Virus record (IMG/VR): IMGVR_UViG_3300025072_002801
Length of the DNA stretch: 64,000 nt
Origin: a virus
Lineage: Duplodnaviria > Heunggongvirae > Uroviricota > Caudoviricetes
Reading direction: 5' to 3' (one strand)
Within the stretch, counting starts at the first letter, position 1. Each line of letters opens with the position of its first letter. Positions 6,678 through 25,444 of the stretch are shown here, in pieces. A model generated the notes under the pieces. It did not search any database. It worked only from the letters and a program-made list of their open reading frames with translations, and was not told the origin of the DNA. Made by a program: the position numbers and the translations under genes.

Positions 6678-8573
6678 ATGATTAAACCAGTTAATGTTAA
6701 ATATGAGCCACAACGCAAGCTAATTAAAAAGAATTGGAAGCCAATTGATGATGCGAAGCCAAGAGTTCTTGGTTATGACGGAAGAGAACATCAGAAAAAG
6801 TGTTTTAAGAAGTTTGCTGGCGAAAGGTTGACAATTTTCATTTCTCCAACTGGAAGTGGAAAGAGTTTGGTTCAAGTGTTTAATGCAGGCAGAGAGATTC
6901 TTGAGTCTGATTATAGACAGAAACAAGTGTTTATTGTTCCGCAATTAAATATTGGGAATGGGTTTTCTGGATTTAAGCACGGAAAGCTAAGAGTTGGAAG
7001 GAATGTATACGGCTGGCACATCACAGAGGATTGCTGCAAGAACAACAACGATTCAGTGAAGAGAATTAGAGCATTTTTGTTGGGAGGACAAAAGAAGCAT
7101 AAGCGATTTAAGAACAAAGATGTGTTGGGTGGATGCACTGCCGTAGTAAGCTATCCTGCATTGATACGGGCTTTTAAGGGAATGAGCAAAAAGGATAAAT
7201 TGAAAGCAATTAAAAATGTATCTTTTCGTATTGATGAAGTTCATCATATATCTGGGGTAGACGAAGTTGGAAATTATGCGAACGAATTGGGTAAATTCAC
7301 AAAATTTGTATTGGACAACAAAGGTAGTCTGCATTTGACAACAGCGACATTTTTTCGTGGGGACAAAGGAGAGATTATATCTCAGAAGTATCTTAAAGAT
7401 TTTTGTGTTTTTCGTGTTCCGTTTTTAGACCATTGGAAAACATTGGGGTTAAAATCTCTTAACTTTAATTACAATTGTTACAAAAACAGTACGGAATTGA
7501 TGCACCAAATTATTGAGGAAATTAAGAAAGAGCCAAACGAATCACCGTTGGTAATCGTCCCAGCAGATAACGCTAAGTTCTTTAGGGGAATTTCAAAGGC
7601 CAGATGGGTGAAGAGGTTAGTTGTAAGGATGGAGGAAATATACGGAAAGGGCAAGGTTCTTGATTTAGTCAATGCGGACAGTCAGAAGATCGACAAGCAT
7701 CGTCTGACTACAGAGAAGCAGGACTTCTCGGCTATTGTGACCTGTCAGATAGGAAAAGAAGGAACTGACTGGCCAGCATGTTCTCGCATCCATAATACGC
7801 TTTTGGACGGAAATATTTTACAGTTGATCCAGAAGCTAGGACGAGCATTGAGGCCATATAAGGGGAAAACAGATGTTGTAATGACAAATTACATTAAAGA
7901 AATGAAAAGTTGGGGAGATTCGGAAGTCAGAGATAGTTTGTCAGACTTATTCAATACTGTTATGGCATCGTCAATGTTAGATGATATGTTCTATCCTCTT
8001 TTGATGCCAACCCTTCCGCAAGACAAGGAAGGCAATAAACAAAGGTCTAAGAACGTTGATTTGGAAGAAGTGTATGGAGAGCATAGGGGTGCTTTAATTG
8101 ATGATATGATGAGACGTGTTTTTGTAGAAGATGATATTGACGCAGAAAAAATTGATGAAATTATCGAAGAATTAATCGTAGAATATTCCGATCTCATGTT
8201 AGAAAACGTGGATCATGATGTTCTTAAAGATAGATTAAGAAAGGAATTGTTGCGTAGACAAAATCCTAATGACGCCGATTTAAGAGGATTGGATGGAATC
8301 ACGTTGGATTTCATTCGCAAGGAAGGTGGATGGGATAAGGTTGTCAAAAAGTACATCGCCAATAATTCGCCATTCCATGGAAAGGTTGGTACAAAAGATC
8401 TTAAGGAGTTGAAGAAGTTTTTGAACGCTTTTTGTGTGGAAGAGTGGGCGGAAAATTTTAACAGAATCAATAAGATTGGCTTAGAAAATTTGGACAAAGA
8501 TTCAGCCGATTATCGTTGGTGGCGATTGCAATGCATAAACCGTCCGCATTGGGAGGGTGAGACAAATGCTTAA
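6678..8573 (+). CDS. Superfamily-2 helicase (DEAD/DEAH-like, ResIII/Helicase_C-type)
   Basis: Walker A FISPTGSGKSLVQ; motif II IDEVHHISG (DEVH); motif VI TCQIGKEGTDWPAC...ILQLIQKLGRALRP; about 250-aa C-terminal extension. Start chosen at MIKPVNVKYEP; the 6573-6677 extension overlaps the previous gene. Confidence 0.7.
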   Translation: MIKPVNVKYEPQRKLIKKNWKPIDDAKPRVLGYDGREHQKKCFKKFAGERLTIFISPTGSGKSLVQVFNAGREILESDYRQKQVFIVPQLNIGNGFSGFKHGKLRVGRNVYGWHITEDCCKNNNDSVKRIRAFLLGGQKKHKRFKNKDVLGGCTAVVSYPALIRAFKGMSKKDKLKAIKNVSFRIDEVHHISGVDEVGNYANELGKFTKFVLDNKGSLHLTTATFFRGDKGEIISQKYLKDFCVFRVPFLDHWKTLGLKSLNFNYNCYKNSTELMHQIIEEIKKEPNESPLVIVPADNAKFFRGISKARWVKRLVVRMEEIYGKGKVLDLVNADSQKIDKHRLTTEKQDFSAIVTCQIGKEGTDWPACSRIHNTLLDGNILQLIQKLGRALRPYKGKTDVVMTNYIKEMKSWGDSEVRDSLSDLFNTVMASSMLDDMFYPLLMPTLPQDKEGNKQRSKNVDLEEVYGEHRGALIDDMMRRVFVEDDIDAEKIDEIIEELIVEYSDLMLENVDHDVLKDRLRKELLRRQNPNDADLRGLDGITLDFIRKEGGWDKVVKKYIANNSPFHGKVGTKDLKELKKFLNAFCVEEWAENFNRINKIGLENLDKDSADYRWWRLQCINRPHWEGETNA

Positions 8574-9594
8574 AAGCGATATGAAGAAATGCTTAAAGAT
8601 GATGGAAGGAGTCCCTGGATGGGAGTCCATATTCATAAAGCCACTTCATGAGTCTGCCGACAAGAAGAAGAAAGAGTTGTTGAAGTTGGCTAGGAAGGGA
8701 GGAAAAAGGCCAAATCAGAAAACTCATCCTTTGGGATCTGCTCTTTGTAATTACGCGAGCAAGTCAAGTGATTGTTATGATGAAGACTTCACTAAAGAAA
8801 TTAAAAAATTAGCACCAAATTGGTTTGAAAAAACTGCCGACAACAATAAGAAAGAGTTATTGAAGTTGGCTAAAAAGAAAAAGGCAAAGAAGCCTCATCA
8901 CAAGACTCTTTTGTGGGCTTATCTTATCGAGTACACAAACATAAAAAAAGGAAAAAAAGGCTCTTACGACGCAGACTTTACTAAAGAGATTAAAAAATTC
9001 GCCCCACATTGGCTTTTAACTAAATCAGATGGTGTTATTAAAAAGAAAGAAGAGTTATTGAAGTTGGCTAGGAAGGGAGGAAAAAGGCCAAGTGAAAAAG
9101 TCCATCCTTTAGGAAAGGCTCTTACTCATTATACAAGTGAGTCAAGTGGAAATTATGACGCATCTTTTGCTAAAAAAATCAAAAAATTAGCTCCACATTG
9201 GTTTGTAGCTAAATCTGATATTGCTAATCAAAAGAAGAAAAAGTTGTTGGGATTGGCTAAAAAAGGTGGAAAAAGACCAAATGGAAGAACTCATCCTTTG
9301 GGGTCTGCTCTTTCCACTTATACGAGAAAGTCGCATAAGTCTTATGATGCATCCTTCACTAAAGAAATTAAAAAATTAGCTCCATATTGGTTTGTGACTC
9401 CATCAGACATTGCCAATCAAAAGAAAAAGGAGTTGTTGAAGTTAGCTAGAAAAGGTGGAGACAGACCAAAAAAAACTCACCATTTGGGATCTGTTCTTTC
9501 CAATTACACAAGCAATTGCACACGATACAATTCTTACGACCCCGCCTTCACAAAGCAAATCAAAAAATTAGCCCCACATTGGTTTAAGAAATGA
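8557..9594 (+). CDS. Lys-rich tandem-repeat protein, family member B (5 APHWF modules)
   Basis: N-terminus (MRQ)MLKSDMKKCLKMMEGVPGWESIF matches members C-E; alternative start at 8566; overlaps the helicase stop; ends APHWFKK with an ATGA overlap onto the next gene. Confidence 0.75.
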   Translation: MRQMLKSDMKKCLKMMEGVPGWESIFIKPLHESADKKKKELLKLARKGGKRPNQKTHPLGSALCNYASKSSDCYDEDFTKEIKKLAPNWFEKTADNNKKELLKLAKKKKAKKPHHKTLLWAYLIEYTNIKKGKKGSYDADFTKEIKKFAPHWLLTKSDGVIKKKEELLKLARKGGKRPSEKVHPLGKALTHYTSESSGNYDASFAKKIKKLAPHWFVAKSDIANQKKKKLLGLAKKGGKRPNGRTHPLGSALSTYTRKSHKSYDASFTKEIKKLAPYWFVTPSDIANQKKKELLKLARKGGDRPKKTHHLGSVLSNYTSNCTRYNSYDPAFTKQIKKLAPHWFKK

Positions 9595-10382
9595 AGATTC
9601 CCAAAAGCGACCTTAAAAAAATGATCAAGATGATGGAAGGAGTCCCTGGATGGGAATCCATCTATGTTAAGTCAAAGCATGCGTCTTCAGACAGGAATAA
9701 AAAAGAGTTGCTGAAGTTGGCAAAAAAGGGAGGCGAAAGACCTAGTTCCAAAACTCATCCTTTGGGGCGTTTCGTTTTTAGCTACGCCAATAAGTTAAGT
9801 AATTGTTACGACGCAGATTTCGCCAAAGAGATTAAAAAATTAGTGCCACATTGGTTTGTGACTCGATCTAATCAAAAGAAAGAACAGTTGTTTGAGTTAG
9901 CTAGGAAAGGAGAAAAGAAGCCTCATTGCAAAACTCCTTTAGGAAGATATTTTTTTAGTTACACCAACAAGTTAAGCGGTTCTTATAACGAAGTATTCAC
10001 GGAAGAAATTAAAAAATTAGTACCACATTGGTTTGTTGGATATGTTGTAAGGCAAAAGAAAGAAGAGTTATTGAAATTGGCTAAAACTGGAGGAAAAAGA
10101 CCAACTCAAAAAACAAATTCTTCTTTATGCAGTTACGCAAATGAGTCAAGTAAATGCTATGACGCAACCTTTGCTAAAAAAATTAAAAAAATCGCCCCAC
10201 ATTGGTTTGAAAAAACTTCCAAAAAAAAGAAAGAAGAGTTATTGAAGTTGGCTAAAAAGGGAGGAGAGAAGCCTTGTTGGAGGGATCATCCTTTGGGGAA
10301 GGATTTTTACAACTACACAAGCAGGACATCATCCTTTACCAAACAAATCAAAAAATTAGCTCCACATTGGTTCAAGAAATGA
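9591..10382 (+). CDS. Lys-rich tandem-repeat protein, family member C (4 modules)
   Basis: MKIPKSDLKKMIKMMEGVPGWESIYVKSKHASSD N-terminal region followed by repeats; ATGA start/stop overlaps at both ends. Confidence 0.75.
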   Translation: MKIPKSDLKKMIKMMEGVPGWESIYVKSKHASSDRNKKELLKLAKKGGERPSSKTHPLGRFVFSYANKLSNCYDADFAKEIKKLVPHWFVTRSNQKKEQLFELARKGEKKPHCKTPLGRYFFSYTNKLSGSYNEVFTEEIKKLVPHWFVGYVVRQKKEELLKLAKTGGKRPTQKTNSSLCSYANESSKCYDATFAKKIKKIAPHWFEKTSKKKKEELLKLAKKGGEKPCWRDHPLGKDFYNYTSRTSSFTKQIKKLAPHWFKK

Positions 10383-11383
10383 AGATTCCCAAAAGCGACC
10401 TTAAAAAAATGCTCAAGATGATGGATGAAGTCCCTGGATGGGAATCCATATACATTGAGTCAAAGCATGCGTCTTCGGATAAGAATAAGAAAGAATTGCT
10501 GACATTGGCTAGGAAGGGAGGGGAAAGACCAAATCAAAAGATGAGTTCTTTAGGAATTGCACTTTGTAGTTATACAAATAAGTCGCATAAGTCTTACAGC
10601 GAAGCCTTCACTAAAGAAATTAAAAAATTAGCACCACATTGGTTTGAAAACACTGCGGACAAAAAGAAAGAAGAGTTGCTTGAGTTGGCTAGGAAGGGAG
10701 GAGAAAGACCAACTCAAAGAAATCATCCTTTGGGAGTTGCTCTTTCTCATTACACAATAAAGTTAGATAAGTCGTATGATGAGGTTTTCGCTAAAAAGAT
10801 TAAAAAAGTCGCCCCATACTGGTTTATAAGTCGATCAGACATTGCCAATCAAAAGAAAAAAGAATTGTTGAAGTTGGCTAAAAGTTCTAAAAAAGCAGAG
10901 AAAAGACCAAACTTAAAAACTGCTCTGGGATCTTCTTTTTCTCATTACACAAGAAAGTCAAGTGGTTCTTATGACGCATTCTTCACCAAAAGAATTAAAA
11001 AAATCGCTCCGCATTGGTTTGAAAATTCTGCCGACGAGAATAAAAAAGAGTTATTGAAGTTGGCTAGGAATGGAAAAAGACCCATAGCGACAACTTCTTT
11101 GGGGTCTGCTCTTTGCAAATATACATCAAAGTTAAGTGGTTATTGTGACGCGATCTTCACCAAAGAAATTAAAAAAATCGCTCCGCATTGGTTTGAAAAT
11201 TCTGCCGACGAGAATAAAAAAGAGTTATTGAAGTTGGCTGAAAAAGGAGGAGAGCGACCAAATCAAAAAACTAATCCTTGCTCGAAGTACCTTTCTGCTT
11301 ATACAAGCAAATCAAATCCTTGTTGCGACCCAACCTTCACAAAGCAAATCAAAAAATTAGCCCCACATTGGTTCAAGAAATGA
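10379..11383 (+). CDS. Lys-rich tandem-repeat protein, family member D (5 modules)
   Basis: Start set at MKIPKSDLKKMLKMMDEVPGW (ATG 10379, overlapping the TGA of member C). The ORF-track extension from 10274 is the out-of-frame tail of member C. Confidence 0.75.
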   Translation: MKIPKSDLKKMLKMMDEVPGWESIYIESKHASSDKNKKELLTLARKGGERPNQKMSSLGIALCSYTNKSHKSYSEAFTKEIKKLAPHWFENTADKKKEELLELARKGGERPTQRNHPLGVALSHYTIKLDKSYDEVFAKKIKKVAPYWFISRSDIANQKKKELLKLAKSSKKAEKRPNLKTALGSSFSHYTRKSSGSYDAFFTKRIKKIAPHWFENSADENKKELLKLARNGKRPIATTSLGSALCKYTSKLSGYCDAIFTKEIKKIAPHWFENSADENKKELLKLAEKGGERPNQKTNPCSKYLSAYTSKSNPCCDPTFTKQIKKLAPHWFKK

Positions 11384-12382
11384 AGATTCCTAAAAGCGAC
11401 CTTAAAAAAATGCTCAAGATGATGGAAGGAATGCCTGGATGGGAATCTATTTATCCAAAGTCAATGCATGAGTCTTCTGATAAAAAGAAAAAAGATTTGT
11501 TGAAGTTGGCTAGGAAGGGAGGGAAAAGGACACATTATAAAACTGCTTTCTGCCCTTAGTGATTATGTGTGTAGGGTCAGTGATTGTTACGACGCATCTT
11601 TCGCTAAAGAGATTAAAAAAATCGCCCCACATTGGTTTGTGACTCAATCAGATCTTGCCAACAAAAAGAAGGAGGCGTTATTGAAGTTGGCTAGAAAAGG
11701 AGGAAAAAAACCTGCCCCAAAAACAGTTTTGTATAGCCCTCTCAATAATTACATAAGAAAATCAAACGCATGTTACGACGCATCTTTCGCTAAAGATATT
11801 AAAAAATTAGCTCCACATTGGTTTGAAAACTCCGCAGACAAAAAGAAAAAAGAGTTATTGAAGTTGGCTAGAAAAGGAAAAGAAAGACCAAAACACAAAA
11901 CTTCTTTGGGACTTTCTTTTTTCAATTATATAAAAGAGACAAATGATTGCTACGACGAATCCTTCACCAAAAAGATTAAAATAATCTCCCCACATTGGTT
12001 TGCAACTCCATCAGATGTTGCCAACAAAAAGAAGGAGGCGTTATTGAAGTTGGCTAAAAAAGGAGGAAAAAGACCGCATCAAAAAACTAATCCTTTGGGA
12101 TCTGCTATTTGCACCTATACAAGTATCAAATCAATTTCTTATGATCCAACCTTCACCAAACAAATTAAAGAATTAGCACCACATTGGTTTATGGGAAGAT
12201 CAGGTTTAGCTAATCAAAAGAAAAAAGATTTATTGAAGTTGGCAAAAAGTGGAGAAAAGCCACATTGGAAGTCCTTTTTGGGAAGACCCATGCATTCTTA
12301 TATGAGTAAGTCGCACGGCTGCTACGACCCAGCCTTCACTAAAAAAATTAAAAAAATCGCCCCACATTGGTTCAAAACATAG
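11380..12382 (+). pseudogene. Lys-rich tandem-repeat protein family member E, interrupted by a +1 frame change/stop near 11540-11566 (probably an ~11-14-nt deletion of the HPLG segment)
   Basis: Frame 1 reads MKIPKSDLKKMLKMMEGMPGW...RKGGKRTHYKTAFCP* (stop at 11557). The repeat continues in frame 2 as ...LLSALSDYVCRVSDCYDASFAKEIKKIAPHWF... to 12382 (5 modules in total). The consensus HPLG is missing at the junction. Confidence 0.5.
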
Positions 12383-12463: not shown

Positions 12464-12649
12464 GTGGAGAAAAAATTTTTAATTCGGTGTAGAGACTGTC
12501 GTTGGAGCAAGCTTTCAACGGGGATAAAGAGCGATCTTGAAGGCATGATAGAGATTCGAGATTGTTCCAACTGTGGCAAGGCCAGGAAGTTCAGGTGTCC
12601 CAAATGCGGTAGATATGCCTACATGAGCAGGTTGAATAGTCGAAGATGA
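12464..12649 (+). CDS. Small zinc-ribbon protein (GTG start)
   Basis: CRDCRW...CSNCGKARKFRCPKCGRYAY: two to three CxxC pairs in 61 aa. Confidence 0.45.
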   Translation: MEKKFLIRCRDCRWSKLSTGIKSDLEGMIEIRDCSNCGKARKFRCPKCGRYAYMSRLNSRR

Positions 12650-13827
12650 TAAGAAAGCACCTTAAGTCTAGCGCGGTATCTTCTAAGAAGCATGAGCGAG
12701 AGCCATTGGTTGATGATTTAGGTTTTACTGTTCACAGTTTCAATAACAGGACCAGACCAACCGACAAGCGTAGGATTTTAATTATCAGTTGTTTTTCTGA
12801 GTTTGGTTGCGAGACAATTGGTACGATGTATTGTATTCCTCGCATTCTTCAGATGTATCCAAATTTCTACACGATAGTAGTAGGTTGGCATGGTCGAGAA
12901 TATTTGTACCGTCATTTGGTTGACGAATATTGGGAGATAGCTGAGGAGCATCAGTGGTTACGAGATTATTGTCGTGCCTTCCACCATGTATCTAAGAATT
13001 TAAAGAAGTGTGAAGAGTCTTTGAAGGATTATGGTCAGGTTTTAGACTCTGGATTTGTTGGCATGGTTGCAGTTGGAAACATATGCAATGGATGCAAGAA
13101 CTTTTGGGGCGAAAACGAACGAGCAGTTTCTTGTCCTAAGTGTCAGAGTACGCAAGTTGTTCAATCTATTTTGAGCAATGTTCAATTTTATAAGCCTCAG
13201 GCTATAAAAATTCCTAAGCCATCCAAGAGTCTTATGGATGAGGCATCTAAATACTTGGGAGAACGTCCCGTTGGCATTTTTGCTCGTGGTCGCAAGACTT
13301 ATGGCAGGAATTTAGAGCCGGAGTTTTATGTGGATCTCATAAAGACTCTTGAGGACAAAGGGTACACTCCTATTTGGCTTGGCGAGAAGCAGAACACGTT
13401 AGAGTGTCCAGTCGATCATATCGTTGATATGAGCCGTAATCCCGTCAGCAGGGACTTGGAGTTAACATTGGCAATAGTTGCCCAACTTGAGTTTACAGTC
13501 CAATTCTGGACAGCCTCGACACGCTTAGCGGCAATGATGGAGACTCCCTATCTTTTGTTTGAAAGTCCAGAGCAGATATTTGGACCTAAGGGGCAGGAGG
13601 GCATAAGAATTAATTTGGTGACAACAGGTAATAAGAAGATTTGCATTTCTCATTTTCTTAGTGTTTATGACGATCCTGATGCAGGGATAGCCTTGGTCAA
13701 ATCGTGTGTAGAAGAAATGGAAGATGACAATTGGGAAGATGTAATTGGCATGGTAGACAGTAAAGAAACTATAACTGCTTTACGAGATGCCAATCTAAAG
13801 AGAATAGGAGCGATTCCAGATGAATAA
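12646..13827 (+). CDS. GT9-family (ADP-heptose:LPS heptosyltransferase-like) glycosyltransferase with an inserted Cys-rich zinc-ribbon
   Basis: N-terminal ILIISCFSEFGCETIG...YPNFYTIVVGWHGREYL and C-terminal GERPVGIFARGRKTYGRNLEPEFYVDLIKTLEDKGYTPIWLGEK...DMSRNPVSRDLELTLAIVAQLEFTVQFWTASTRLAAMMETPYLLFESPEQIFGP align well with the WaaF/RfaF pattern (RP.IG..PGA...KRWP...LA..L...G..VVLFG...NLAG.T.L..A..LIA....V.NDSG.MH.AAAL..P.VALYGP). CNGCKNFW...CPKCQ insert. Confidence 0.6.
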   Translation: MIRKHLKSSAVSSKKHEREPLVDDLGFTVHSFNNRTRPTDKRRILIISCFSEFGCETIGTMYCIPRILQMYPNFYTIVVGWHGREYLYRHLVDEYWEIAEEHQWLRDYCRAFHHVSKNLKKCEESLKDYGQVLDSGFVGMVAVGNICNGCKNFWGENERAVSCPKCQSTQVVQSILSNVQFYKPQAIKIPKPSKSLMDEASKYLGERPVGIFARGRKTYGRNLEPEFYVDLIKTLEDKGYTPIWLGEKQNTLECPVDHIVDMSRNPVSRDLELTLAIVAQLEFTVQFWTASTRLAAMMETPYLLFESPEQIFGPKGQEGIRINLVTTGNKKICISHFLSVYDDPDAGIALVKSCVEEMEDDNWEDVIGMVDSKETITALRDANLKRIGAIPDE

Positions 13828-14959
13828 AGTTTCAGAAACGTTAAAAAAATGTGCGGCGGATACAGGTTTTGTTAGAGAGGTCTTTGATGATACTAAGGCT
13901 CCAGTGAATGCGGAGGACGTAATAGTAATTCCATTCTTTGGCGACATTCGTTCAACATTTATTTTTTCAACATTATTGTGTAAGCGAATGAAGGAATTGA
14001 ATAGTTCCAAATATGTTGTTGTAGCCACATGGCCAGGACATAAGGGACTGTATCCATATGCTGACGAATGTTGGTCGCTTGCTAACATGGATAAGGTTGA
14101 GGAGTTGTACAATTCTTCTGATGGGTTTGAGAATTCTGATAGAGCGGTATACCTCATGTATCGGGTTTTGAACAGATACTTTACAGTTGTTGGTCATGAG
14201 GATATTGAGAAGTATTACCATAATGGTTTGACAACAGCATTTTGGAAAGATTTTAAATTTGTTGAGAGATCATTCCCAAGTGTCCCATCAGTGACTATTT
14301 TGGGCGAAAAATTTAATTCTGAGCTTCAAAAGCGACCTGGATTCAAGGTTTTTATATGTCCGTCCAAATGGATAACGTACTGGAATCAGGGGAAATTAGT
14401 AAAAGCTCGTTGTCCTAAGGATTTTTGGGTAGGATTAGTTTCCCATCTTTTGGAGAATGAATTTGTTCCAATAATACATTTTGGACCTCTTGTTCATGAC
14501 ATATCTGATGTATTTGTTGAGAAATGCGTTTATTTGAACGAGCCAGACATTACTAAGGTTATGGGTGCAATGCGAGCAATTGGGTGTACTTTGGATGTAT
14601 TTTCTGACTTTTCTCGTATATCTATGATGGCTAGATGTCCTTATGTAAGTGTAACAGAGAGAGGAAAGCATGCTAGTGCTAAGGATTTCGAGTTGGATGG
14701 TCTGTGTGGTAAAGGTCTTCCAAAAGAGCATATTTTTTACTTTCCTACTATTATAGATAATAAGCAGTCTGCACATAGCGTTTATGAAATTGCAGCAACA
14801 AGATTAAAAAACTTTATACCTAATATTGATTTTGGAGCCTTGCCTCCTGCATCCGAATCTAGCATCGAAGTATCTTACGACGAAGTTAAGCGGGTGAAGA
14901 GGAAAAAGCGAGGAGCAAGATTTATAAGAATTCCTATAGAAAGGGAACTTGATGGCTAA
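13820..14959 (+). CDS. GT9-family glycosyltransferase paralog
   Basis: Same length and architecture as 12646-13827 (VIVIPFFGDIRSTFIFSTLLCKRMKE...YVVVATWPGHKGLY; C-terminal KVFICPSKWI...GAMRAIGCTLDVFSDFSRISMMARCPYVSV); start overlaps the previous stop. Confidence 0.55.
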   Translation: MNKVSETLKKCAADTGFVREVFDDTKAPVNAEDVIVIPFFGDIRSTFIFSTLLCKRMKELNSSKYVVVATWPGHKGLYPYADECWSLANMDKVEELYNSSDGFENSDRAVYLMYRVLNRYFTVVGHEDIEKYYHNGLTTAFWKDFKFVERSFPSVPSVTILGEKFNSELQKRPGFKVFICPSKWITYWNQGKLVKARCPKDFWVGLVSHLLENEFVPIIHFGPLVHDISDVFVEKCVYLNEPDITKVMGAMRAIGCTLDVFSDFSRISMMARCPYVSVTERGKHASAKDFELDGLCGKGLPKEHIFYFPTIIDNKQSAHSVYEIAATRLKNFIPNIDFGALPPASESSIEVSYDEVKRVKRKKRGARFIRIPIERELDG

Positions 14960-15215
14960 CGTAACACGAGTTAGAGTCGTTCAAAAATATCAACTGTCAG
15001 ATAGAGCATCCAAAGAAGAGAAAGAAAGAGCCTTTAAGGGACTGTTTACTGCGTTCAAGAGACAAGTGACTGACGCTGGCATTTTGCACTTGTGCAAGAA
15101 GTATGAGCGATATGAGAAGCCTTCTGAAAAGCGTCATCGCAAGAAGAAGGAAAAGAACTTGGAGCGAATCAAGGCTCTCAGAGGCACAGATCCACGTAGT
15201 AAAAAGAAGAAATAA
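14949..15215 (+). CDS. rpsU: Ribosomal protein bS21
   Basis: ERAFKGLFTAFKRQVTDAGILHLCKKYERYEKPSEKRHRKKKEKN parallels E. coli S21 ([43 protein letters not shown]); very basic C-terminus. Confidence 0.7.
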   Translation: MMANVTRVRVVQKYQLSDRASKEEKERAFKGLFTAFKRQVTDAGILHLCKKYERYEKPSEKRHRKKKEKNLERIKALRGTDPRSKKKK

Positions 15216-15618: not shown

Positions 15619-16158
15619 ATGCCCACAGAAAATGAGCGGAAGTTTGTTTTAAAGTTTTGTGAAGAAGAGATAAAAGCAATTGCTGATAAGAAGCTGGACA
15701 TTCATCAAGGGTATCTTGACTCTGGATCGTCACGGATACGGCATACTGAGATTATGCTTGAAAAGTCTCATAAGTTTGTTTTTACATTCAAAAAAAGAGT
15801 TAATGGTCGCGTTGTTGAAATCGAAAGAAGTATTTCTCAACGCGACTTTCTTGATTTGTGGGACTCCACACATTCTAAACTTCGAAAGATAAGATATAAC
15901 GTCAAATCTGAAGGATATGTTTGGGAAGTTGATTTTTTTAAAACTTTGAATGATAAAAAAACATACTTTGCCATGGCAGAAGTTGAGTTGCCAGAAGGCA
16001 AAGAGATGCCAGATTCAGTTCCTTCTTTCATTAAGGATAATCTCTTGTATCTGGTTGATGAAGGTGATGATAGATTCAGTAGCAAATCTCTTTCAGATCA
16101 TTCTCATGCAGATGATATGCTTGAACTTATAAAGGTGTATAAAGATGGAGCTAGTTGA
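15619..16158 (+). CDS. CYTH-domain (triphosphate tunnel metalloenzyme) protein
   Basis: N-terminal E-x-E-x-K signature (TENERKFVL), RIRHTEI, beta-rich repeats and the acidic VELPEGKEMPD motif typical of CyaB/ThTPase-like CYTH domains. Confidence 0.6.
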   Translation: MPTENERKFVLKFCEEEIKAIADKKLDIHQGYLDSGSSRIRHTEIMLEKSHKFVFTFKKRVNGRVVEIERSISQRDFLDLWDSTHSKLRKIRYNVKSEGYVWEVDFFKTLNDKKTYFAMAEVELPEGKEMPDSVPSFIKDNLLYLVDEGDDRFSSKSLSDHSHADDMLELIKVYKDGAS

Positions 16159-16618
16159 TTGCCAAGACATTCCCAGGAAAGAAGATGTTGAAAAGCTCTT
16201 TAAAGAAGACGCTGATGTTGTAAGGATGTACAATAATTTCATAAAAATGAAAAAGCTGTGTGAAGAAACCAAAGGAGTGGGGCTTTCTGCTGTTCAAGTG
16301 GGGTTGCCACTTTCTATGTTTGTGGCTAAACTTGATGCTGGGTGGCGTAATTTTTTAAATTGTGAATACGAACGAGCGCCAGACGCCAAGGAAATTAAAT
16401 CACTAGAGGGATGTTTGTCCTTGCCAGGAAGAGGGTTTCGTGTCTCAAGACATGATAGGATCGTGGTGAGAGGGCAAGATATGATTGTGGACGCAGACAT
16501 TCTTGTTAGAGATATAGAGGAAGAATTGACTGGGTTTGATGCAATCGTTGTTCAGCACGAAATAGATCATCAAAATGGAATTTTGATTTCTGACATTGGA
16601 ACCGAAGTAGATACTTAA
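16145..16618 (+). CDS. def: Peptide deformylase
   Basis: All three PDF motifs present: GVGLSAVQVG (GxGxAAxQ), EGCLSLPG (EGCLS) and QHEIDHQNG (HExxH). Confidence 0.85.
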   Translation: MELVDCQDIPRKEDVEKLFKEDADVVRMYNNFIKMKKLCEETKGVGLSAVQVGLPLSMFVAKLDAGWRNFLNCEYERAPDAKEIKSLEGCLSLPGRGFRVSRHDRIVVRGQDMIVDADILVRDIEEELTGFDAIVVQHEIDHQNGILISDIGTEVDT

Positions 16619-16631: not shown

Positions 16632-16910
16632 ATGGCTTTATCTAAAAAACAAACAGAAGATATTTGTCTTCAGACTTTAAGCAACCACAAAACTTGCAGG
16701 TACTTAGCTCAAGATGACCTGGACAGCAAGAAGTTCTATTGCTTGAAGAAGTCTGTTAAAAAGGCAATTGCTGATACAGAAGTAGGTGAATTCATGGGCA
16801 AAATGAAAAAGGCTGGACAAGATCCAAATGCTCAAGGGTTGCCTCTTGGAGACAATTGTACAGGCTATCCAATAATGGGCTATCTAGAACAAGGCTATGA
16901 CGTTGACTAG
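16632..16910 (+). CDS. Hypothetical protein
   Basis: 92-aa ORF with AGAGAAC RBS; no domain. Confidence 0.45.
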   Translation: MALSKKQTEDICLQTLSNHKTCRYLAQDDLDSKKFYCLKKSVKKAIADTEVGEFMGKMKKAGQDPNAQGLPLGDNCTGYPIMGYLEQGYDVD

Positions 16911-17419
16911 CGGCAAATCCCACGTTTAGTCTGGCTTTTTAAAACAACGTTATATACGTCCTTCTCAATGTTGTCGTTAATTGCTTGGTAGAAGATGGCG
17001 TCTTCAAGATCTAAGTCATCTTGGTCTGCTATTGCATCTGCAAGCAATGACGATACCTTTTCGCTTTTCTGTGCGCGATTTCTATAATGGAAGGTCGTTA
17101 AAATTAAAATAACGCCCAATCCAAATACCATTATGAGCGCTCCATCTCCTTGCAATATTTGTACTCCACTATTCTCATTGTGTGACAGTTTTGCATTTAG
17201 GTTGACTAAGCCTTGTTGGAAATTGTCCAGGTTTTCAGAGATTACACTGGCTTCTTGTCTAAGCTTCCCAAGTTCAGTAACTATGCTGTTTTGGTTTTGC
17301 TTTAATTCTTCTATTTCCCCACCCTGGTTATCTATTTCGTTTTCTAATCGTGGGGATAAATTTCCACACCCAGAGAAGAATAATAAAGAAGCCAAAGCTG
17401 TTGCAATTACGTATTTCAT
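16907..17419 (-). CDS. Lipoprotein with coiled-coil region and C-terminal TM helix
   Basis: MKYVIATALASLLFFSGCGN (lipobox FSGC); heptad-rich middle; C-terminal ALIMVFGLGVILILTTF. Start set at the internal Met, so the 8 upstream codons are excluded. Confidence 0.55.
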   Translation of the reverse strand: MKYVIATALASLLFFSGCGNLSPRLENEIDNQGGEIEELKQNQNSIVTELGKLRQEASVISENLDNFQQGLVNLNAKLSHNENSGVQILQGDGALIMVFGLGVILILTTFHYRNRAQKSEKVSSLLADAIADQDDLDLEDAIFYQAINDNIEKDVYNVVLKSQTKRGICR

Positions 17420-17549
17420 TTTTTCCACCTTATCAAAATCCATCTATCTTATATTTATTATTTATGTTATATTTTTATATTCCAGTCTTAAGTCTTTAAT
17501 TAAAGAGGATCATGAATTGTTTGATTCAAAAGAAAATAAACATGTTGAG

Positions 17550-17903: not shown

Positions 17904-17915
17904 CTTTAATAAGGC

Positions 17916-18230
17916 ATGAGTGATTTAGACTTTATTTCAGGTAATTTTTTTGACGTTGATTTGCCTCGTGAGTGGAAGTATTTGGAAAAATACTTCCACT
18001 CAGACGTTCAAAGGGCGTTTTTATATTACTACTATACCTTTGACAACACTGAATTGATGGCAGACCATACTGGTCATCCTGTCAGTAAGCGTTGGTTGCG
18101 TAAGTTGAAGAGTAAATTAAGAAACATACGCAATGCACATAAAAAGGCTAAAAGTGAATTTGACATAGAAATGGTCGCTATTATTGAAAGCGGAAAATTT
18201 AGGGGATTTTATAAAACAGATGGCACATAG
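17916..18230 (+). CDS. Hypothetical protein
   Basis: 104-aa ORF; no domain. Confidence 0.45.
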   Translation: MSDLDFISGNFFDVDLPREWKYLEKYFHSDVQRAFLYYYYTFDNTELMADHTGHPVSKRWLRKLKSKLRNIRNAHKKAKSEFDIEMVAIIESGKFRGFYKTDGT

Positions 18231-19734
18231 AAAATCTTGTGGGCAATGCGGCATTGAGTTTAACGGACAGAAGTTAAAGACTAAGTTTTGTTCTAAAGTC
18301 TGTGCTGGAAAGGCTAAGAGAACTTCATACAACAAGAAGTGCGAAGAGTGCGATAATGTATTTGAAACTAATCCATCGGCTAATGCTAAGTTTTGTTCCA
18401 AGGATTGCAATTACAAAAATGCTGGAAGAACTGGCAGGATAAATGTAGCTCGTATTGAGAAATGTTGCGAATTTTGCGAAAAAACATTTGGCATCACACC
18501 GGGAGCGGAACGTAAACGCATCAAACAATTTGGTGTTGGGGCAAAATTTTGCTCTGCCAAATGTATGGGAGCATATAAATCTGCTCAATTCGACCATCCA
18601 GACGTGAATAGGAAATGTGAGTTCTGTGGAAATGGATTTGTTGTCGAAAAGCCTTGCAAGAAAAATAGGTTTTGCACGAAAAAATGTTCGTGTGAAGCAA
18701 TTAAAGAAGAAAATGAGAAAAAACGAAGCCGAATAGTTCCCTTGATGAAGGAGTATCGTCTCGCCAATACTGTCATAGAGACGGCGAAAAAGTTTGATAT
18801 GTCTCCTTCTGGAATTCGGCAATGGGGAGTATTAGGACTAGAGGCGGAAAAGAGATTATCTTGCCCCAACCAACTTACTACGGAGCAAGAAGAGGTTTTA
18901 GTTGGCAACCTCTTGGGAGATGGCTATTTGAGATGCATAAAACCAAACACAAATCAGAACACCCATTTTGGAATTCAGCAAAAATTGGAGCGATCTGAGT
19001 ATCTAAAAGGATTGTATGATATTTATTCCCATTTTTCAAGCGGATATGGAGAGGGAAAAGCCAAAAAGCCAAGCAGGGTTAATGGCAAGATTACACATGC
19101 AGCAGAGCATTGGAACGGAGAGTGGTCAGAATGGTGTCAATTGCGCACAGTTTCCCATCCAGTTTTTAATGATTATCGTGTCAAGTGGTACGAAGAACCA
19201 TATGTTAAAAACAGTCTAAAAATAATCCCAGACGATATTCGTTTGACGTGGAGAACGGCGGCAATTTGGATGTGTGATGATGGATCTAATCATGTGAACG
19301 ATGTTATCAAGGGGAGAAATTATGGTCCAAGATATTTGATGATACATACCGAATCATTTTCCGAAAATGAAGTTCAATTTCTGATCCAATGCCTGCAAAG
19401 GGATCTAGACATTAAAGGAACGCTGAACTACCATGATGGAAAGCCGACACTTCGTATTGGTGGCGATGACTGGTATAGATTTATTGAAAATATAAAACCC
19501 TATATTCCTTGGGAGTGTTTTCAATATAAATGTAAAAACCGTAAGAAAATCAATAGGAATAAGTCTGGGTTTGTGGGTGTAAGATTTCGTAGTGGGTCTT
19601 GGCACGCATACAAGTCATTTCGAGTAAGTGGAAAATACAAACAGTTCCATATTGGATCATTTGAGACTCCCGAAGCAGCCGTTGATGCTCGTAAACGATG
19701 GATTGATAAATTTTCTCAAAAAGGGAATAAGTAA
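18220..19734 (+). CDS. Free-standing LAGLIDADG homing endonuclease with C-terminal AP2-type DNA-binding domain and an N-terminal array of 4-5 FCS/TRASH-like zinc ribbons
   Basis: Repeated Cx2C-x(12-16)-(K/R)FCS(K/A)xC units (KFCSKVCAGKAKR, KFCSKDCNYKNAGR, KFCSAKCMGAYK, RFCTKKCSCE). LAGLIDADG motif 1 LVGNLLGDGYL and motif 2 AAIWMCDDGS. C-terminal SGFVGVRFRSGSWHAYK...GSFETPEAAVDARKRW (AP2). Confidence 0.65.
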   Translation: MAHRKSCGQCGIEFNGQKLKTKFCSKVCAGKAKRTSYNKKCEECDNVFETNPSANAKFCSKDCNYKNAGRTGRINVARIEKCCEFCEKTFGITPGAERKRIKQFGVGAKFCSAKCMGAYKSAQFDHPDVNRKCEFCGNGFVVEKPCKKNRFCTKKCSCEAIKEENEKKRSRIVPLMKEYRLANTVIETAKKFDMSPSGIRQWGVLGLEAEKRLSCPNQLTTEQEEVLVGNLLGDGYLRCIKPNTNQNTHFGIQQKLERSEYLKGLYDIYSHFSSGYGEGKAKKPSRVNGKITHAAEHWNGEWSEWCQLRTVSHPVFNDYRVKWYEEPYVKNSLKIIPDDIRLTWRTAAIWMCDDGSNHVNDVIKGRNYGPRYLMIHTESFSENEVQFLIQCLQRDLDIKGTLNYHDGKPTLRIGGDDWYRFIENIKPYIPWECFQYKCKNRKKINRNKSGFVGVRFRSGSWHAYKSFRVSGKYKQFHIGSFETPEAAVDARKRWIDKFSQKGNK

Positions 19735-19794
19735 AAAATATTGTTCACACTCAGTTAAATGAAAGTATTATTTAACACAAAGATGAAATAGGCT

Positions 19795-19989
19795 ATGAGA
19801 GAAGATTTACTGACGGAATATAAGGCTGTGCTGGGCATGATTGACGAAACTGAGGAAAAAGCCAAATTGCTTCTTGTTCGTTTAGATGATGGGGAAATCA
19901 TATCAGAAGAGGAAGTAGTTGACATAGAAGAGGACACTTCCACATATATGCAGAGATTATTCCAACTTGAGCTATCTTTGGGTGTTTAA
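19795..19989 (+). CDS. Hypothetical small acidic protein
   Basis: 64-aa ORF directly upstream of the IS element. Confidence 0.35.
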   Translation: MREDLLTEYKAVLGMIDETEEKAKLLLVRLDDGEIISEEEVVDIEEDTSTYMQRLFQLELSLGV

Positions 19990-19994
19990 TGATT

Positions 19995-21300
19995 GATATG
20001 CTAAACTAAAAGAAAGACGTGATGGGGTGAACTGCCCAACTAATCGTTGAACTTCATGCTTCATAGACAATTGGTTATTGCTAACTCTTACATCGTCTCC
20101 ACATGTGTAATCGACTGTCCCAGCCGATGTGTTTTAGTTTAATCCTTCATCAAGAATGTTTTTTGCTGCGTTTAAGTCACGATCTAATTCATGACCATTG
20201 GCGCAAGTCCATTTTCTATCTGAAAGCTTTAACTCTTGATTTATCCAACCACAAATATTACATGTTTTACTGCTTGGGAAAAATCTATTTATTTTAACTA
20301 CTTGCCTATCATTCCATTCCGCCTTGTAAGACAGATATTGAATAAATGTTCCCCAACTAGCATCAGAAATATGTTTTGCTAATTTGTGATTTTTAACCAT
20401 ACCTTTAACATTTAAGTCTTCGCAACAAATTATATCATAATCGCAAATTAATTTATTTGATATTTTGTGAAGATTGTCATGACGACAATTGGCAATTTTT
20501 TCATGAATTAAAGCAACTTTTTTCTTTTGCCTTAAATATAAATTACTGTCTTTTTGCTTTCTGCTTAAATGTTTTTGTGCCGTAGCTAATTCCTTTTCAT
20601 GCTTTTTTAAAAATCTATGATTCTTAAACCGCATATCATCTGATGTAATTATGAGTTCTTTTAGTCCTAGATCAATTCCAACTTTTTGATTGGTTTTCTC
20701 TTTAGGTTGATATTCTTCTTTGACTAAAATTGAAACATAATACTTGCCAGACTGTGTTTTTGAAATTGTAAAATTTCTTATCTCTCCATTAATTTCCCTG
20801 TGTTGCTTAACTTTGATTCCATTTTTAAATTTTGGAAAATAAATTTTACCGTTTTCCAATTTAATGGATTGTGGAACATGAAAACTATTTTTCTTTCTCT
20901 TTGATTTGTAATTTGGAAACTTTGAATTGCCTCTAAAGAAATTAACATAAGCAATTTCAAGATTCCTCAAAGCATGTTGAACAGATTGACTATTCACTTC
21001 TTTCAACCAAGTTAATTCTTTTTTGAGTTTCGTTAAAGATTTTGCTTGAGCAAAATAATTATCTGACTTTTTTTCTTTTTGATATTGTTCTTGTCTTTGT
21101 TTAAGAAAGTGATTGTACACAAATCTCACGCAACCAAAATGCTTGCCAAGAAGGTTTTTTTGGTCTTCGTTAGGGCGTAACCTAAATTTATATGCTCTTT
21201 GTATTTTCTTCACATAATATAATAGTATTGTTATTTACAAAAATAACGATAATTTTGTAAATTTTATAAAATACACAAACTTCACCTAAGAAAGCAGGAA
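19995..21300 (-). mobile_element. IS200/IS605-family TnpB-only insertion element (IS1341/ISC-like); the ends are approximate
   Basis: Single minus-strand tnpB gene, noticeably more AT-rich than its surroundings; non-coding flanks of about 140 bp (3' side, expected omega/reRNA region) and about 90 bp (5' side). Confidence 0.55.
20134..21213 (-). CDS. tnpB: TnpB (OrfB) RNA-guided nuclease-type transposase accessory protein
   Basis: N-terminal MKKIQRAYKFRLRPNEDQKNLL (OrfB_IS605 HTH); RuvC-like GIDLGLKELI; C-terminal CNICGWINQELKLSDRKWTCANGHELDRDLNAAKNI zinc finger / RuvC-III. Confidence 0.85.
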   Translation of the reverse strand: MKKIQRAYKFRLRPNEDQKNLLGKHFGCVRFVYNHFLKQRQEQYQKEKKSDNYFAQAKSLTKLKKELTWLKEVNSQSVQHALRNLEIAYVNFFRGNSKFPNYKSKRKKNSFHVPQSIKLENGKIYFPKFKNGIKVKQHREINGEIRNFTISKTQSGKYYVSILVKEEYQPKEKTNQKVGIDLGLKELIITSDDMRFKNHRFLKKHEKELATAQKHLSRKQKDSNLYLRQKKKVALIHEKIANCRHDNLHKISNKLICDYDIICCEDLNVKGMVKNHKLAKHISDASWGTFIQYLSYKAEWNDRQVVKINRFFPSSKTCNICGWINQELKLSDRKWTCANGHELDRDLNAAKNILDEGLN

Positions 21301-21325
21301 AAGGAAACTGATTGCTAAATAAAGT

Positions 21326-21874
21326 ATGGATTTAAATTTTAGAACATGGTTTGATAGTCAAGACAAGAATGAATCGAGTGCTTTTACTCGTTCGAGAAGA
21401 CAGTTTGCATTGGGCTTAGGTCCAGCACTTCCTGACGCTGCCCTTCATTCTCGTTCAACTTGTCCTCCAGGCGAACTTGAGGCAATCAAGAAGAACAAGA
21501 AAAAGAAGAAGAAGAAAGTAAAAAAAAAAGTAGTTAAAGAAGAGAACGACATTGATAAATGGCTATCAGCAGTTGATGATCTCAAGCGTGACATGGATGA
21601 ACTCGGCAAAGAAAAGCCTGAGGACGAAGAAGATATAGATCCAGAAGAAGACGAAGACGGTATAGAAGACGAAGACATTCCAGCCGACGATGCCGACGAT
21701 GCCGACGATGCTGATGATTCTGAGGAAGAAGAAGATGAAGATCACGAAGATAATCTTCTTACCCAAATAAAAGGTCAATCGCCAGAATCACCAGAAATGC
21801 CTGATGATCTAGATTCTAAATTAAAGAGTGCTTTCAAAACAGGCGATGAAAGCGAAGAAGACGATGAACTATAA
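21326..21874 (+). CDS. Hypothetical highly acidic protein with a Lys-run
   Basis: KKNKKKKKKKVKKKVVKEE followed by poly-D/E (DDADDADDADDSEEEEDEDHED); contains an A10 homopolymer (about 21518-21527) and a 12-bp x3 gacgatgccgac repeat. Confidence 0.5.
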   Translation: MDLNFRTWFDSQDKNESSAFTRSRRQFALGLGPALPDAALHSRSTCPPGELEAIKKNKKKKKKKVKKKVVKEENDIDKWLSAVDDLKRDMDELGKEKPEDEEDIDPEEDEDGIEDEDIPADDADDADDADDSEEEEDEDHEDNLLTQIKGQSPESPEMPDDLDSKLKSAFKTGDESEEDDEL

Positions 21875-22200
21875 TGTTGGATTATATTGAAAGAATCGTC
21901 TATTCATTCATGTGGCTTGTAATCGGAGCCGTTTCTGCAATTGATACTTATTGGTCAGTTGAATTAGGTGAATCTCTCTACGCTGACGAAATGAATCCAG
22001 TGGGTCGTTTAATTATGTCCTTGGATGGTGGCGGAGTGGCTTTATTTATGGGACTCAAATTTATGGGTACTGTCTTTGTTTTAGGCTACTTTGTTTACAT
22101 CTTCTCTAAATCGAAGAACTTTGCTTGGTCTACCATAGTTCCTATATTTCTTCTGCAACTTATGCTTCTTGTGTACCTGTATACGGGATTTAACTTCTAA
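21874..22200 (+). CDS. Small integral membrane protein (about 3 TM)
   Basis: Hydrophobic stretches VYSFMWLVIGAVSAI, VALFMGLKFMGTVFVLGYFVYIF, IVPIFLLQLMLLVYLY; ATGA overlap with the upstream gene. Confidence 0.5.
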   Translation: MLDYIERIVYSFMWLVIGAVSAIDTYWSVELGESLYADEMNPVGRLIMSLDGGGVALFMGLKFMGTVFVLGYFVYIFSKSKNFAWSTIVPIFLLQLMLLVYLYTGFNF

Positions 22201-22229
22201 GATAACTATATTATTGTTAGGAGTTAAAG

Positions 22230-22973
22230 ATGGATAAGCCAAGTTTCCCAGAGTTTTTAAAAAGTATTGAAGTAGAATCATTTTGGTCGATTTGCCAATT
22301 AAGTGGCAATTACAATGAAATTCCCAAACATTTTGAATTGTATGATTATCAAAAAGACTTGGTAAACGCATATGAAAATGAAGATTTTATAATTCTTAAG
22401 AAGTTTAGGCAAGGAGGGTTTACGACACTATCTGTAGTCTATTCATTGTATCTGTGTTATCTTGGCGAGAAGGATGAAAGTATTTTTCTTGCATTTAATA
22501 TGGATCGTGAAGCATGTTGTGTTGGCAACTTGATTGATAGGTTGATGCAAGGCATTCCAGAAGGAATTATGCCAAACCTTGTTAAACAAACAGATCATGA
22601 AAAGGTGTTCGATAACGGATGTTCAATCTTGTTGTTGTCTTCGCAGTCGGGTTCATTGCGTGGAAGGTCTTTTTCTAGGATTTTTATTGATGAGTCGGCG
22701 TTTCATAGAGATATGGATAATTTTTGGAAAGCAATATATCCATGTATTTCCGAAGGAGGAAAAGTTGTTGTGCAATCTACTCCAAGCGTCCATGATGGAG
22801 GAAGTTGGTTTAAAAAGACTTATTTAGACGCAATGAAATTGAAAAACAAATTTAGAATATTTCATACAAGTTACAAAGAGAATCCACAATACACTCCAGA
22901 ATTCATAGAAACGCTACGATCTAATCTGGGTGACAAAGGATTCAAGCTGGAAATAGAAGCAGAATTTATTTAA
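22230..22973 (+). CDS. Terminase large-subunit ATPase-domain-like protein (T4 gp17 N-terminal-domain-like), stand-alone 247 aa
   Basis: YDYQKDLV / KKFRQGGFTTL / NGCSILLLSSQSGSLRGRSFSRIFIDESAFH / WKAIYPCISEGGKVVVQSTPSVHDGGSWF align with T4 gp17 (YQRDML / SRQLGKTTVV / [30 protein letters not shown] / WLAIQPVISSGRRSKIIITTTPNG). The Walker-A lysine position is Phe, but a Lys lies five residues upstream (lambda gpA-like deviant KxxxxGxxT). Confidence 0.65.
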   Translation: MDKPSFPEFLKSIEVESFWSICQLSGNYNEIPKHFELYDYQKDLVNAYENEDFIILKKFRQGGFTTLSVVYSLYLCYLGEKDESIFLAFNMDREACCVGNLIDRLMQGIPEGIMPNLVKQTDHEKVFDNGCSILLLSSQSGSLRGRSFSRIFIDESAFHRDMDNFWKAIYPCISEGGKVVVQSTPSVHDGGSWFKKTYLDAMKLKNKFRIFHTSYKENPQYTPEFIETLRSNLGDKGFKLEIEAEFI

Positions 22974-23510
22974 ATGTTCCAAATAATCGGAGTAGGCGAA
23001 TTAGGTGGCAATAGAGACAAGTTCACTCGCCTGTACAATAAGAAAGTAGGAAAAGGAAACTGGTTTTGGGGCTTCTGTGCCAAGAAAAACTTGTATTCTT
23101 GGGATATAGGCATGCAATTGTATGAGGATGCCTACTGGAACTACTTTAGAGGTCATAAAGCAGCTTTGAAGGGCGTTGTGAGCTATTCTAACGTCTTTGT
23201 GGAAAGATCCAGTGATGTTGAGTCTGGATTGGACTATCGCACTCAGCAGGGCTATGAGGACCATTATGAGGACATCGCAGTAAGAAGATGCCTCAGGAGA
23301 ATGGGAGTGTGGTTCAAAGGCGAAAAAGACAGGTATTTGAACGTCAATAGCTCCCCATTAAGCTCTCAACTCGTTAAATTCCACCTTCCACACCTTTTGG
23401 ATGAAGGCGAAGATAATTGTGTAGCGTCATGGATATTAAACCATAGAGTTGTTATAATCGCTGACGAACCATCAGACCAACAACAATTAGCAGAGATTCT
23501 AATACGATGA
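22974..23510 (+). CDS. Hypothetical protein (possibly the second part of a split or degenerate terminase)
   Basis: Starts 1 nt after the terminase-ATPase stop; MFQIIGVGELGG loosely resembles an RNase-H-fold strand 1 but lacks the Asp; no confident nuclease motifs. Confidence 0.4.
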   Translation: MFQIIGVGELGGNRDKFTRLYNKKVGKGNWFWGFCAKKNLYSWDIGMQLYEDAYWNYFRGHKAALKGVVSYSNVFVERSSDVESGLDYRTQQGYEDHYEDIAVRRCLRRMGVWFKGEKDRYLNVNSSPLSSQLVKFHLPHLLDEGEDNCVASWILNHRVVIIADEPSDQQQLAEILIR

Positions 23511-24196: not shown

Positions 24197-24557
24197 AAGT
24201 TTTGAAAACAGATGTTATGTTGAAGTTCCAAATCATGGAGTGGTAGATTTGGAGCCATTTGTGTGGGGCGCATTTTTTTATAAGCCAATTTTTGATGAAG
24301 AAGAACCTTTGAGAGTGATATTGGATTTGGATGTTCCTCGAAAAGACACTACAAGTTGGCAGTCCGATGACCCAGACATGATGGCAGTTTATGACACACT
24401 TCATTCGTCAATCAGTAACCGTGTCTCTGTTTGTAAGTTTAAGCCTCCGAAAAAGAGAGAGTCCATGGCATCTCTTAGAAAGATTGGCATGGGAGATTCC
24501 CCTTACAAGGGTCGTCATCAAATAAGATTAGTAAGGCTTGAATGGTGGTTAGTATGA
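24177..24557 (+). CDS. Hypothetical protein
   Basis: Start set at the internal MKNNWTKSF to minimise overlap; no domain. Confidence 0.4.
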   Translation: MKNNWTKSFENRCYVEVPNHGVVDLEPFVWGAFFYKPIFDEEEPLRVILDLDVPRKDTTSWQSDDPDMMAVYDTLHSSISNRVSVCKFKPPKKRESMASLRKIGMGDSPYKGRHQIRLVRLEWWLV

Positions 24558-24605
24558 GTTTTAAATTGGAGTTGGTAATTTCAGCTACTAACAATATATA
24601 AATGT

Positions 24606-25415: not shown

Positions 25416-25444
25416 CTTTTCACAATTTATAAGAAAGGCGGATA

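Follow-up and report, generated by a model that had tools for sequence, protein, structure and literature searches.

A conserved gene cassette of huge phages encoding two GT9-related GT-B proteins and a small zinc-ribbon protein

We analyzed a 64,000-nucleotide stretch of DNA, hereafter the window, from a tailed virus (Caudoviricetes; IMG/VR record IMGVR_UViG_3300025072_002801) and focused on three consecutive genes encoding a small zinc-ribbon protein (ZnR) and two larger proteins termed P1 and P2 (Table 1). An initial annotation, made from the sequence alone, had described P1 and P2 as two tandem GT9-like glycosyltransferases with zinc-ribbon-like cysteine inserts. Both open reading frames (ORFs) are present on the + strand at exactly the coordinates given there, and the small CxxC ORF directly upstream of P1 is likewise real. 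The P1 and P2 ORFs overlap by 8 nt, as read from the window sequence, and an identical P1 protein is also encoded on a 389-kb contig. BLASTP aligns P1 with P2 over just 76 N-terminal residues (25% identity, E 7e-7) whereas profile-to-profile comparison with hhalign covers 338 columns at 17% identity (97.4%, E 1.4e-11). Judged by these profiles, P1 and P2 are ancient paralogues whose kinship extends over their full length. The C-terminal half is not well conserved in both proteins, as had been described; the two C-terminal halves are alike at the profile level only. In case of the motifs quoted for this half, GERPVGIF, GYTPIWLGE, TLAIVAQLE and PYLLFESP can be found in P1 whereas 'KRW' and 'HLAA' are absent. 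P1 instead reads K-T-Y...G-R-N-L and R-L-A-A, and the quoted letters are a GT9 consensus that was read into the sequence.

We compared the gene neighborhood in 67 loci, which lie on contigs as long as 634 kb. P2 directly follows P1 in 66 of them, and ZnR lies just upstream of P1 in 58 (37-62% identity by tblastn), commonly overlapping the P1 start by 4 nt; on public contigs it was missed by gene callers. The gene for ribosomal protein bS21 comes after P2 in 57 loci, the P2 stop and the S21 start being -11 to +81 nt apart in 55 of the loci. The order of the locus is ZnR - P1 - P2 - bS21 - (RHH) - peptide deformylase - p92 - reverse-strand lipoprotein - p104, and its first part, from ZnR through P1, P2 and bS21 to peptide deformylase, is seen again in about 60 huge-phage loci. 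Median identity within this block is highest for P1 (52%), followed by 38% for peptide deformylase and 37% for P2. The small proteins p92 and p104 match bS21 and peptide deformylase in their synteny with the cassette (59/67 and 56/67 loci, respectively) and the lipoprotein gene is kept in 50/67 loci. Its architecture is similar to that of a unimolecular spanin, with a hydrophobic stretch that may be transmembrane, and its lipobox suggests a Gram-negative host. ZnR itself is a small, basic protein with a conserved S-T-G loop and six cysteines that are invariant in 26 orthologues (C9, C12, C34, C37, C45 and C48). Searching its profile against the sequences of the Protein Data Bank (PDB) returned generic zinc-ribbon noise (E > 2e-3), and scanning the cassette surroundings for promoters and terminators gave nothing better than shuffled sequences did. 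ZnR, P1 and P2 form a translationally coupled cassette, conserved as a core block within one clade of uncultured huge phages.

Of 50,697 phage records on deposit, one carries P1, namely LR756511, a 595-kb genome of an uncultured phage; P1 was found in no cultured phage. Genomes of the P1-bearing huge-phage clade span 0.28-0.66 Mb. When 1.84 billion representatives were searched exhaustively by HMMER, the P1 profile matched only 127 clusters; the family is narrow. P1 homologues are also found on 62- and 546-kb contigs deposited as 'Candidatus Thorarchaeota archaeon' and 'Crenarchaeota archaeon' proteins of metagenome-assembled genomes (MAGs); these are probably huge-phage contigs that were binned into archaeal MAGs. 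LR756511 encodes a full-length HldE-like sugar kinase/nucleotidyltransferase ca. 24 kb from P1, which indicates that P1-bearing phages can make activated sugars. An extra cytidylyltransferase-like gene lies near this fusion. No ADP-heptose pathway genes were found in the window or the 67 loci, GmhA, GmhB and RfaD all being absent from the matches, and GmhA was not detected in LR756511 either. We also considered a window aldehyde dehydrogenase gene as a source of host information, but its best match (43-44% to Armatimonadota MAGs) was uninformative.

The GT-B fold of GT9 is found in both proteins, and the nearest structures to both are GT9 members. Fold-match scores for P1 and P2, respectively, were 16.8 and 14.8 for WaaF (1psw), 15.8 and 14.4 for 3tov, 13.9 and 10.6 for TibC (4rap), 13.7 and 11.5 for WaaC (2h1f) and 13.7 and 14.4 for PnsB1 (7wff_a). 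Structure matches in BFVD were weak (TM score about 0.4). A sequence bridge leads to the same lineage. The Pfam-annotated relatives outside the P1 family that were recovered by the HMMER search are all GT9-positive, and the P1 profile matches these PF01075-bearing proteins with E values of 6.5e-4 (P0365), 1.7e-4 (P0357) and 1.2e-4 (P0355). Aligning the P1 profile to P0365 with hhalign reaches 91.6%; the 250 aligned columns span both lobes and pair GEFGFE with SEFGCE and apDTGanH with QFWTASTR. For P2, the link to GT9 is transitive, running via P1 and via P0317 (96.5%), a direct comparison of P2 with P0365 being unsuccessful. P0365 and P0317 lie on short contigs, and P0365 adjoins a weak Hydrolase_3 (HAD-type) match. 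Further, residues 213 to 306 of P1, the donor-binding half, match the NCBIfam glycosyltransferase family TIGR04372 below threshold (E 1.6e-4, 21 bits against a curated cut-off of 45 bits); this family is itself uncharacterized. No family in Pfam, PHROG, NCBIfam or PADLOC was above threshold for P1, P2 or the small ORF. Based on fold and sequence bridge, the designation GT9-like is supported as far as fold and remote homology are concerned, although neither protein matches the GT9 family model itself. P1 and P2 are anciently duplicated GT-B proteins from the GT9 (heptosyltransferase) lineage and constitute a separate family of remote GT9 homologues, not orthologues of lipopolysaccharide (LPS) heptosyltransferases. 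No description of this family was found in the literature searched. The accompanying remark that GT9 enzymes are uncommon in phages is overstated: BFVD contains several phage proteins annotated as GT9, RfaF or Aah/TibC, and a heptosyltransferase I auxiliary metabolic gene has been reported in a huge phage (PMC10747093).

P1 carries a pair of cysteine knuckles, C147-x2-C150 and C163-x2-C166, within residues 147 to 167 (CNGCKNFWGENERAVSCPKCQ). The four cysteines (Cys4) are invariant in 44/44 database homologues, and the C-x2-C...C-x2-C pattern is kept in 53/54 non-redundant orthologues from the fetched loci. The insert follows the last strand of the N-lobe (residues 144 to 147) and precedes the linker helices, the C-lobe starting at about residue 208. 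Residues 144 to 172 give weak matches to zinc-ribbon families in Pfam. In one orthologue (locus L066, 8001-9038) the whole insert is missing, its small Zn-ribbon gene being located 2 kb away, and P0317 (locus L150, 3316-5028), a 570-residue protein with a P1/P2-like core and a 280-residue C-terminal extension, also has no ribbon. Its presence in nearly all orthologues and its complete absence from these two proteins identify the insert as a discrete, nearly universal module. We infer that it binds a structural metal, predicted to be Zn by default. The cysteine insert described initially is thus real and conserved in P1, but the plural was wrong since P2 has no cysteine cluster.

The same cluster had been likened to the metal site of the protein-heptosylating BAHT enzymes (TibC, AAH; 4rap), which share with P1 a GT9-related GT-B core with an added tetra-Cys site. 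The iron finger of TibC is formed by Cys339/342/358/370 and is inserted in the C-lobe (residues 218-406), and TibC further possesses an N-terminal beta-barrel of 97 residues as well as a thumb made of a beta-hairpin (PMC4358343). In P1, by contrast, the site lies between the lobes, before the linker, and only ca. 43 residues with one short strand precede beta-1, leaving no N-terminal barrel. The corresponding part of P2 consists of one helix plus one strand, and there is no autotransporter substrate gene beside P1 and P2. Comparison with the structures of TibC and of WaaC and WaaF, which had been proposed as a check, did not favor TibC, as both WaaF and 3tov outrank it for both proteins. The different position of the cysteines and the missing barrel indicate that the P1 site was acquired independently of the BAHT site and is not equivalent to it. 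A clear orthology to LPS-core heptosyltransferases and an unconserved Cys site had been named as findings that would overturn the initial annotation; neither was observed.

We carried out a residue-level comparison to WaaC, WaaF and TibC. E52 of P1, invariant in 44/44 homologues, and the invariant D42 of P2 (G41-D42) both directly precede the first helix. E52 aligns with P2 D42 as well as with G-E of P0365, and these acids are the likely counterparts of the catalytic base (WaaC D13, TibC D110). A mapping by loop length had pointed to P1 C55 as the WaaC D13 counterpart. This assignment was rejected since profile alignments place E52 at that position and several orthologues have S, T or V instead of C55. 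At the position of the diphosphate-binding lysine (WaaC K192, WaaF K195, TibC K230), P1 has the invariant R221, a conservative change; R221 is part of the loop A213-R-x-R-x-x-Y-G-R-N222, which is likewise invariant. In P2, a beta-hairpin is inserted at this point and the residue varies, with no conserved Lys or Arg. The GT9 sugar-binding motif D-(T/S)-G-x-x-H (WaaC D261...H266) is represented by W288-T-A-S-T-R293 in P1, conserved to at least 97% in 54 orthologues, and by the consensus (F/H)261-S-(G/D)-x-S-R266 in P2. With this motif replaced, P1 probably uses a donor sugar other than that of WaaC and WaaF or holds it differently. Residues of P1 conserved to at least 97% include E52-E56, R214-N222, G246-E247, W288-R293, E306-Q310, E318 and R321. 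They follow beta-strands and are located at the canonical ligand loops of the GT-B fold, a pattern that looks like that of an enzyme with a rebuilt sugar pocket.

Taken together, we favor with moderate confidence an explanation in which the cassette encodes a heteromeric, nucleotide-sugar-dependent glycosyltransferase. The case for a partnership comes from the near inseparability of P1 and P2 across the compared loci and the overlaps that join all three genes. P1 would be the catalytic subunit with E52 as base, R214, R216 and R221 as a phosphate clamp and a new sugar pocket containing W288 and R293. P2, which keeps the base Asp and has no Lys or Arg at the clamp position, may either be a transferase acting in sequence with P1 or the partner that binds the acceptor, a division of labor that we presume to follow the logic of waaF-waaC or GtfA/GtfB. 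Pairs of adjacent GT4-like GT-B paralogues, one catalytic and one acceptor-binding, would offer an analogous gene logic as a working model for P1 and P2, although they use UDP-GlcNAc as donor and have no zinc ribbon; the likeness is one of logic, with homology limited to the GT-B fold. The Cys4 insert could serve, via its structural metal, as a docking element for P2, ZnR or the acceptor. As acceptor, a conserved phage or host macromolecule would be favored over host LPS because P1 is highly conserved across habitats.

Several results weigh against this explanation. Even at E <= 1, neither P1 nor P2 matches Pfam PF01075 (Glyco_transf_9), and this domain is precomputed for none of the ca. 240 listed homologues. 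Profiles of both proteins yield nothing significant against PDB sequences, and hhalign of either protein to a two-sequence alignment of WaaF and WaaC reaches only 5-8% probability, in the right register, which by itself carries no weight. The residue correspondences with WaaC, WaaF and TibC come from sequence alignments and not from superposition. Both the sugar-binding Asp and the His of GT9 are replaced. The non-enzymatic PnsB1, a GT9-fold subunit of the chloroplast NDH complex, scores equal to the enzymes in the fold comparison. Finally, the synteny could be that of an inherited backbone and need not reflect functional coupling.

The best surviving alternative, though an unlikely one, is that P1 and P2 are an auxiliary pair of LPS inner-core heptosyltransferases like waaF-waaC which remodels host LPS, for example to block superinfection. 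WaaF, WaaC and 3tov being the nearest structures is in line with this, as are the reported huge-phage heptosyltransferase I gene, the HldE-like gene of LR756511, the Gram-negative host suggested by the lipoprotein and the tandem arrangement of the paralogous E. coli genes waaF and waaC. Compared with WaaF, WaaC and other GT9 members (1psw, 2h1f, 3tov), P1 and P2 have the two-lobe GT-B fold and the acid before helix alpha-1 in common, A-A-x-x-x-P recurs after the sugar loop, and P1 aligns its basic R221 with the diphosphate-binding lysine. However, identity to these enzymes is just 9-16%, the GT9 domain model finds no match, the heptose-binding D-T/S-G...H motif is replaced in both proteins, and neither the inter-lobe ribbon of P1 nor the ZnR partner gene has a counterpart in WaaC or WaaF. 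P1 and P2 are also phage core genes outside any LPS cluster, and the remaining heptose genes were missing from window and loci alike. The identity of 50-60% that P1 shows across phages of many habitats is hard to square with host-specific LPS cores.

Less probable again is that P1 and P2 form a non-catalytic GT9-fold scaffold, being structural or adaptor proteins that hold a ligand or partner in the cleft but transfer nothing. PnsB1 (NDF1) sets a precedent as an equally good structural match that keeps the GT9 fold without canonical catalysis, and the loss of the canonical sugar-binding residues and, in P2, of the phosphate-binding Lys is consistent with such a role. PnsB1 is, however, a subunit of a eukaryotic complex, and P1 concentrates invariant charged and polar residues, the acid in the base position among them, precisely in its GT-B ligand loops, as enzymes typically do.

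A glycosyltransferase acting on nucleic acid, either on modified phage DNA bases or on RNA, with zinc ribbons and Arg-rich loops binding the polynucleotide, is improbable. The DNA glucosyltransferases of phages belong to the GT-B enzymes. Zinc ribbons and the invariant P1 arginines (R84, R214, R216, R221, R293 and R321) would suit this role, and the window encodes nucleotide-metabolism functions, namely two dCMP-deaminase-like proteins, a dUTPase-like and a nucleoside deoxyribosyltransferase-like protein and a Dam methylase. On the other hand, no hydroxymethylase was seen in the window.

We give still less weight, as a distinctly improbable reading, to ZnR, P1, P2, bS21 and peptide deformylase forming one unit that glycosylates the translation machinery. 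Its targets would be phage bS21, ZnR with its S-T-G loop, or a ribosomal protein or other factor of the host. The reading is prompted by the overlap of bS21 with P2; bS21 is assigned to the gene string by position only. If true, this would amount to ribosome-directed glycosylation on a GT9 scaffold as part of a takeover of the ribosome by huge phages.

A BAHT-like protein heptosyltransferase using Cys4 for oligomerization or for gripping its substrate, with the repeat-rich proteins encoded upstream as targets, is very improbable and largely refuted by Cys4 position and synteny, for although P1 has a conserved tetra-Cys site and such repeat proteins do precede the cassette, the site lies elsewhere than in TibC, the barrel is absent, the closest structures are others, the L066 orthologue is entirely ribbon-less, and the repeat proteins implied as substrates occur in just 3/67 loci, all near-identical copies of this same phage.

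These repeat proteins consist of repeats of ca. 59-63 residues ending in ...APHWF, corresponding to DNA periods of 177 and 189, and two of the ORFs, 11278-11559 and 11567-12382, are the parts of a single split gene copy. Their PHROG matches are solely to families of unknown function, and Pfam revealed no autotransporter domain. The surroundings of the cassette in the window are those of a huge phage, comprising bS21, peptide deformylase, IF3, DnaJ, a terminase N-terminal domain, TnpB, a LAGLIDADG endonuclease, tRNAs and metabolic genes (Table 1). The TnpB segment is the sole segment of low GC content in the window (0.335) and has a GC skew of zero, which suggests a recent mobile-element insertion. 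The terminase gene is partial, perhaps because of a split or an interruption. The genes of the ubiquitin-like conjugation set are interspersed with one for a nucleoside 2-deoxyribosyltransferase-like protein.

Table 1. Position and description of the cassette, its neighbors and further features (window coordinates unless a locus is named)
Feature	Position	Strand	Description
DUF4379 protein	5-1519	+	504 aa; five treble-clef zinc-finger repeats and a DnaJ-like segment; E 5.6e-86
YqeY-like	3984-4442		Translation/proteostasis set
Repeat-gene array	8557-12382	+	Tandem paralogous genes, each product starting MKIPKSDLKKM...
ZnR	12464-12649	+	Small zinc-ribbon ORF, 61 aa; GTG start; TGA stop overlaps the P1 ATG as ATGA
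P1	12646-13827	+	393 aa; GT-B fold, remote GT9 relative, putative catalytic subunit
P1 Cys4 knuckle pair	13084-13143	+	Insertion between N-lobe and inter-lobe linker
P2	13820-14959	+	379 aa; GT-B fold paralogue of P1 without ribbon
bS21	14952-15215	+	Pfam Ribosomal_S21, E 1.5e-10; overlaps P2 stop; translation/proteostasis set
Peptide deformylase	16145-16618		Translation/proteostasis set
p92	16632-16910	+	Small function-unassigned protein, Cys-rich, ...GDNCTGYP...
Lipoprotein	16907-17443	-	178 aa; lipobox FFSGC, coiled middle, hydrophobic stretch near residue 125-137
p104	17916-18230	+	Small function-unassigned protein
LAGLIDADG homing endonuclease	18184-19734	+
TnpB (OrfB)	20134-21213	-	IS605-type
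Terminase large subunit, N-terminal domain	22230-22973	+	Partial, 247 aa; profile positions 71-199 of 215
IF3	27070-27588		Translation/proteostasis set
DnaJ	33808-34782		Full; translation/proteostasis set
GT2 glycosyltransferase	37555-38319	+
RNA ligase	38523-39905	-	T4-type; segment where GC skew turns negative
Short-chain dehydrogenase/reductase	44875-45894	+	Closest to dTDP-glucose 4,6-dehydratase (TIGR01181, E 3e-62, below its cut-off)
SPFH/Band-7 proteins	48119-51379	+	Two adjacent large proteins, 520 and 555 aa
Ubiquitin-like conjugation set	51448-55916	+	Prok-E2_D E2, JAB-domain and ThiF/E1-like proteins
tRNA genes	61446-63344	+	Five: Met, Met, Pro, Trp, Asp
Region of the HldE-like fusion	17904-26082 of locus L153 (LR756511.1 338059-379384)		PfkB and cytidylyltransferase; between thymidylate synthase/DHFR and two GT2-domain genes

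In conclusion, P1 and P2 represent a strongly conserved, hitherto unannotated core gene family shared by a large huge-phage clade and solidly placed by fold and homology. What is new here is a GT9-derived GT-B family with an apparently rebuilt sugar loop, an independent tetra-Cys insert and a dedicated ZnR partner, whose function we infer from sequence. P1 is a second, independent case in which a tetra-Cys module has been added to the core of a GT9 protein. That P1 is conserved above the neighboring peptide deformylase makes a central role likelier than an accessory function at the host surface and argues for such a role of the pair. Placement in the GT9 lineage with a rewired sugar pocket turns the family into a concrete enzyme candidate for huge-phage biology and, should its target be a conserved phage or host protein, the cassette would constitute a new protein-glycosylation system.

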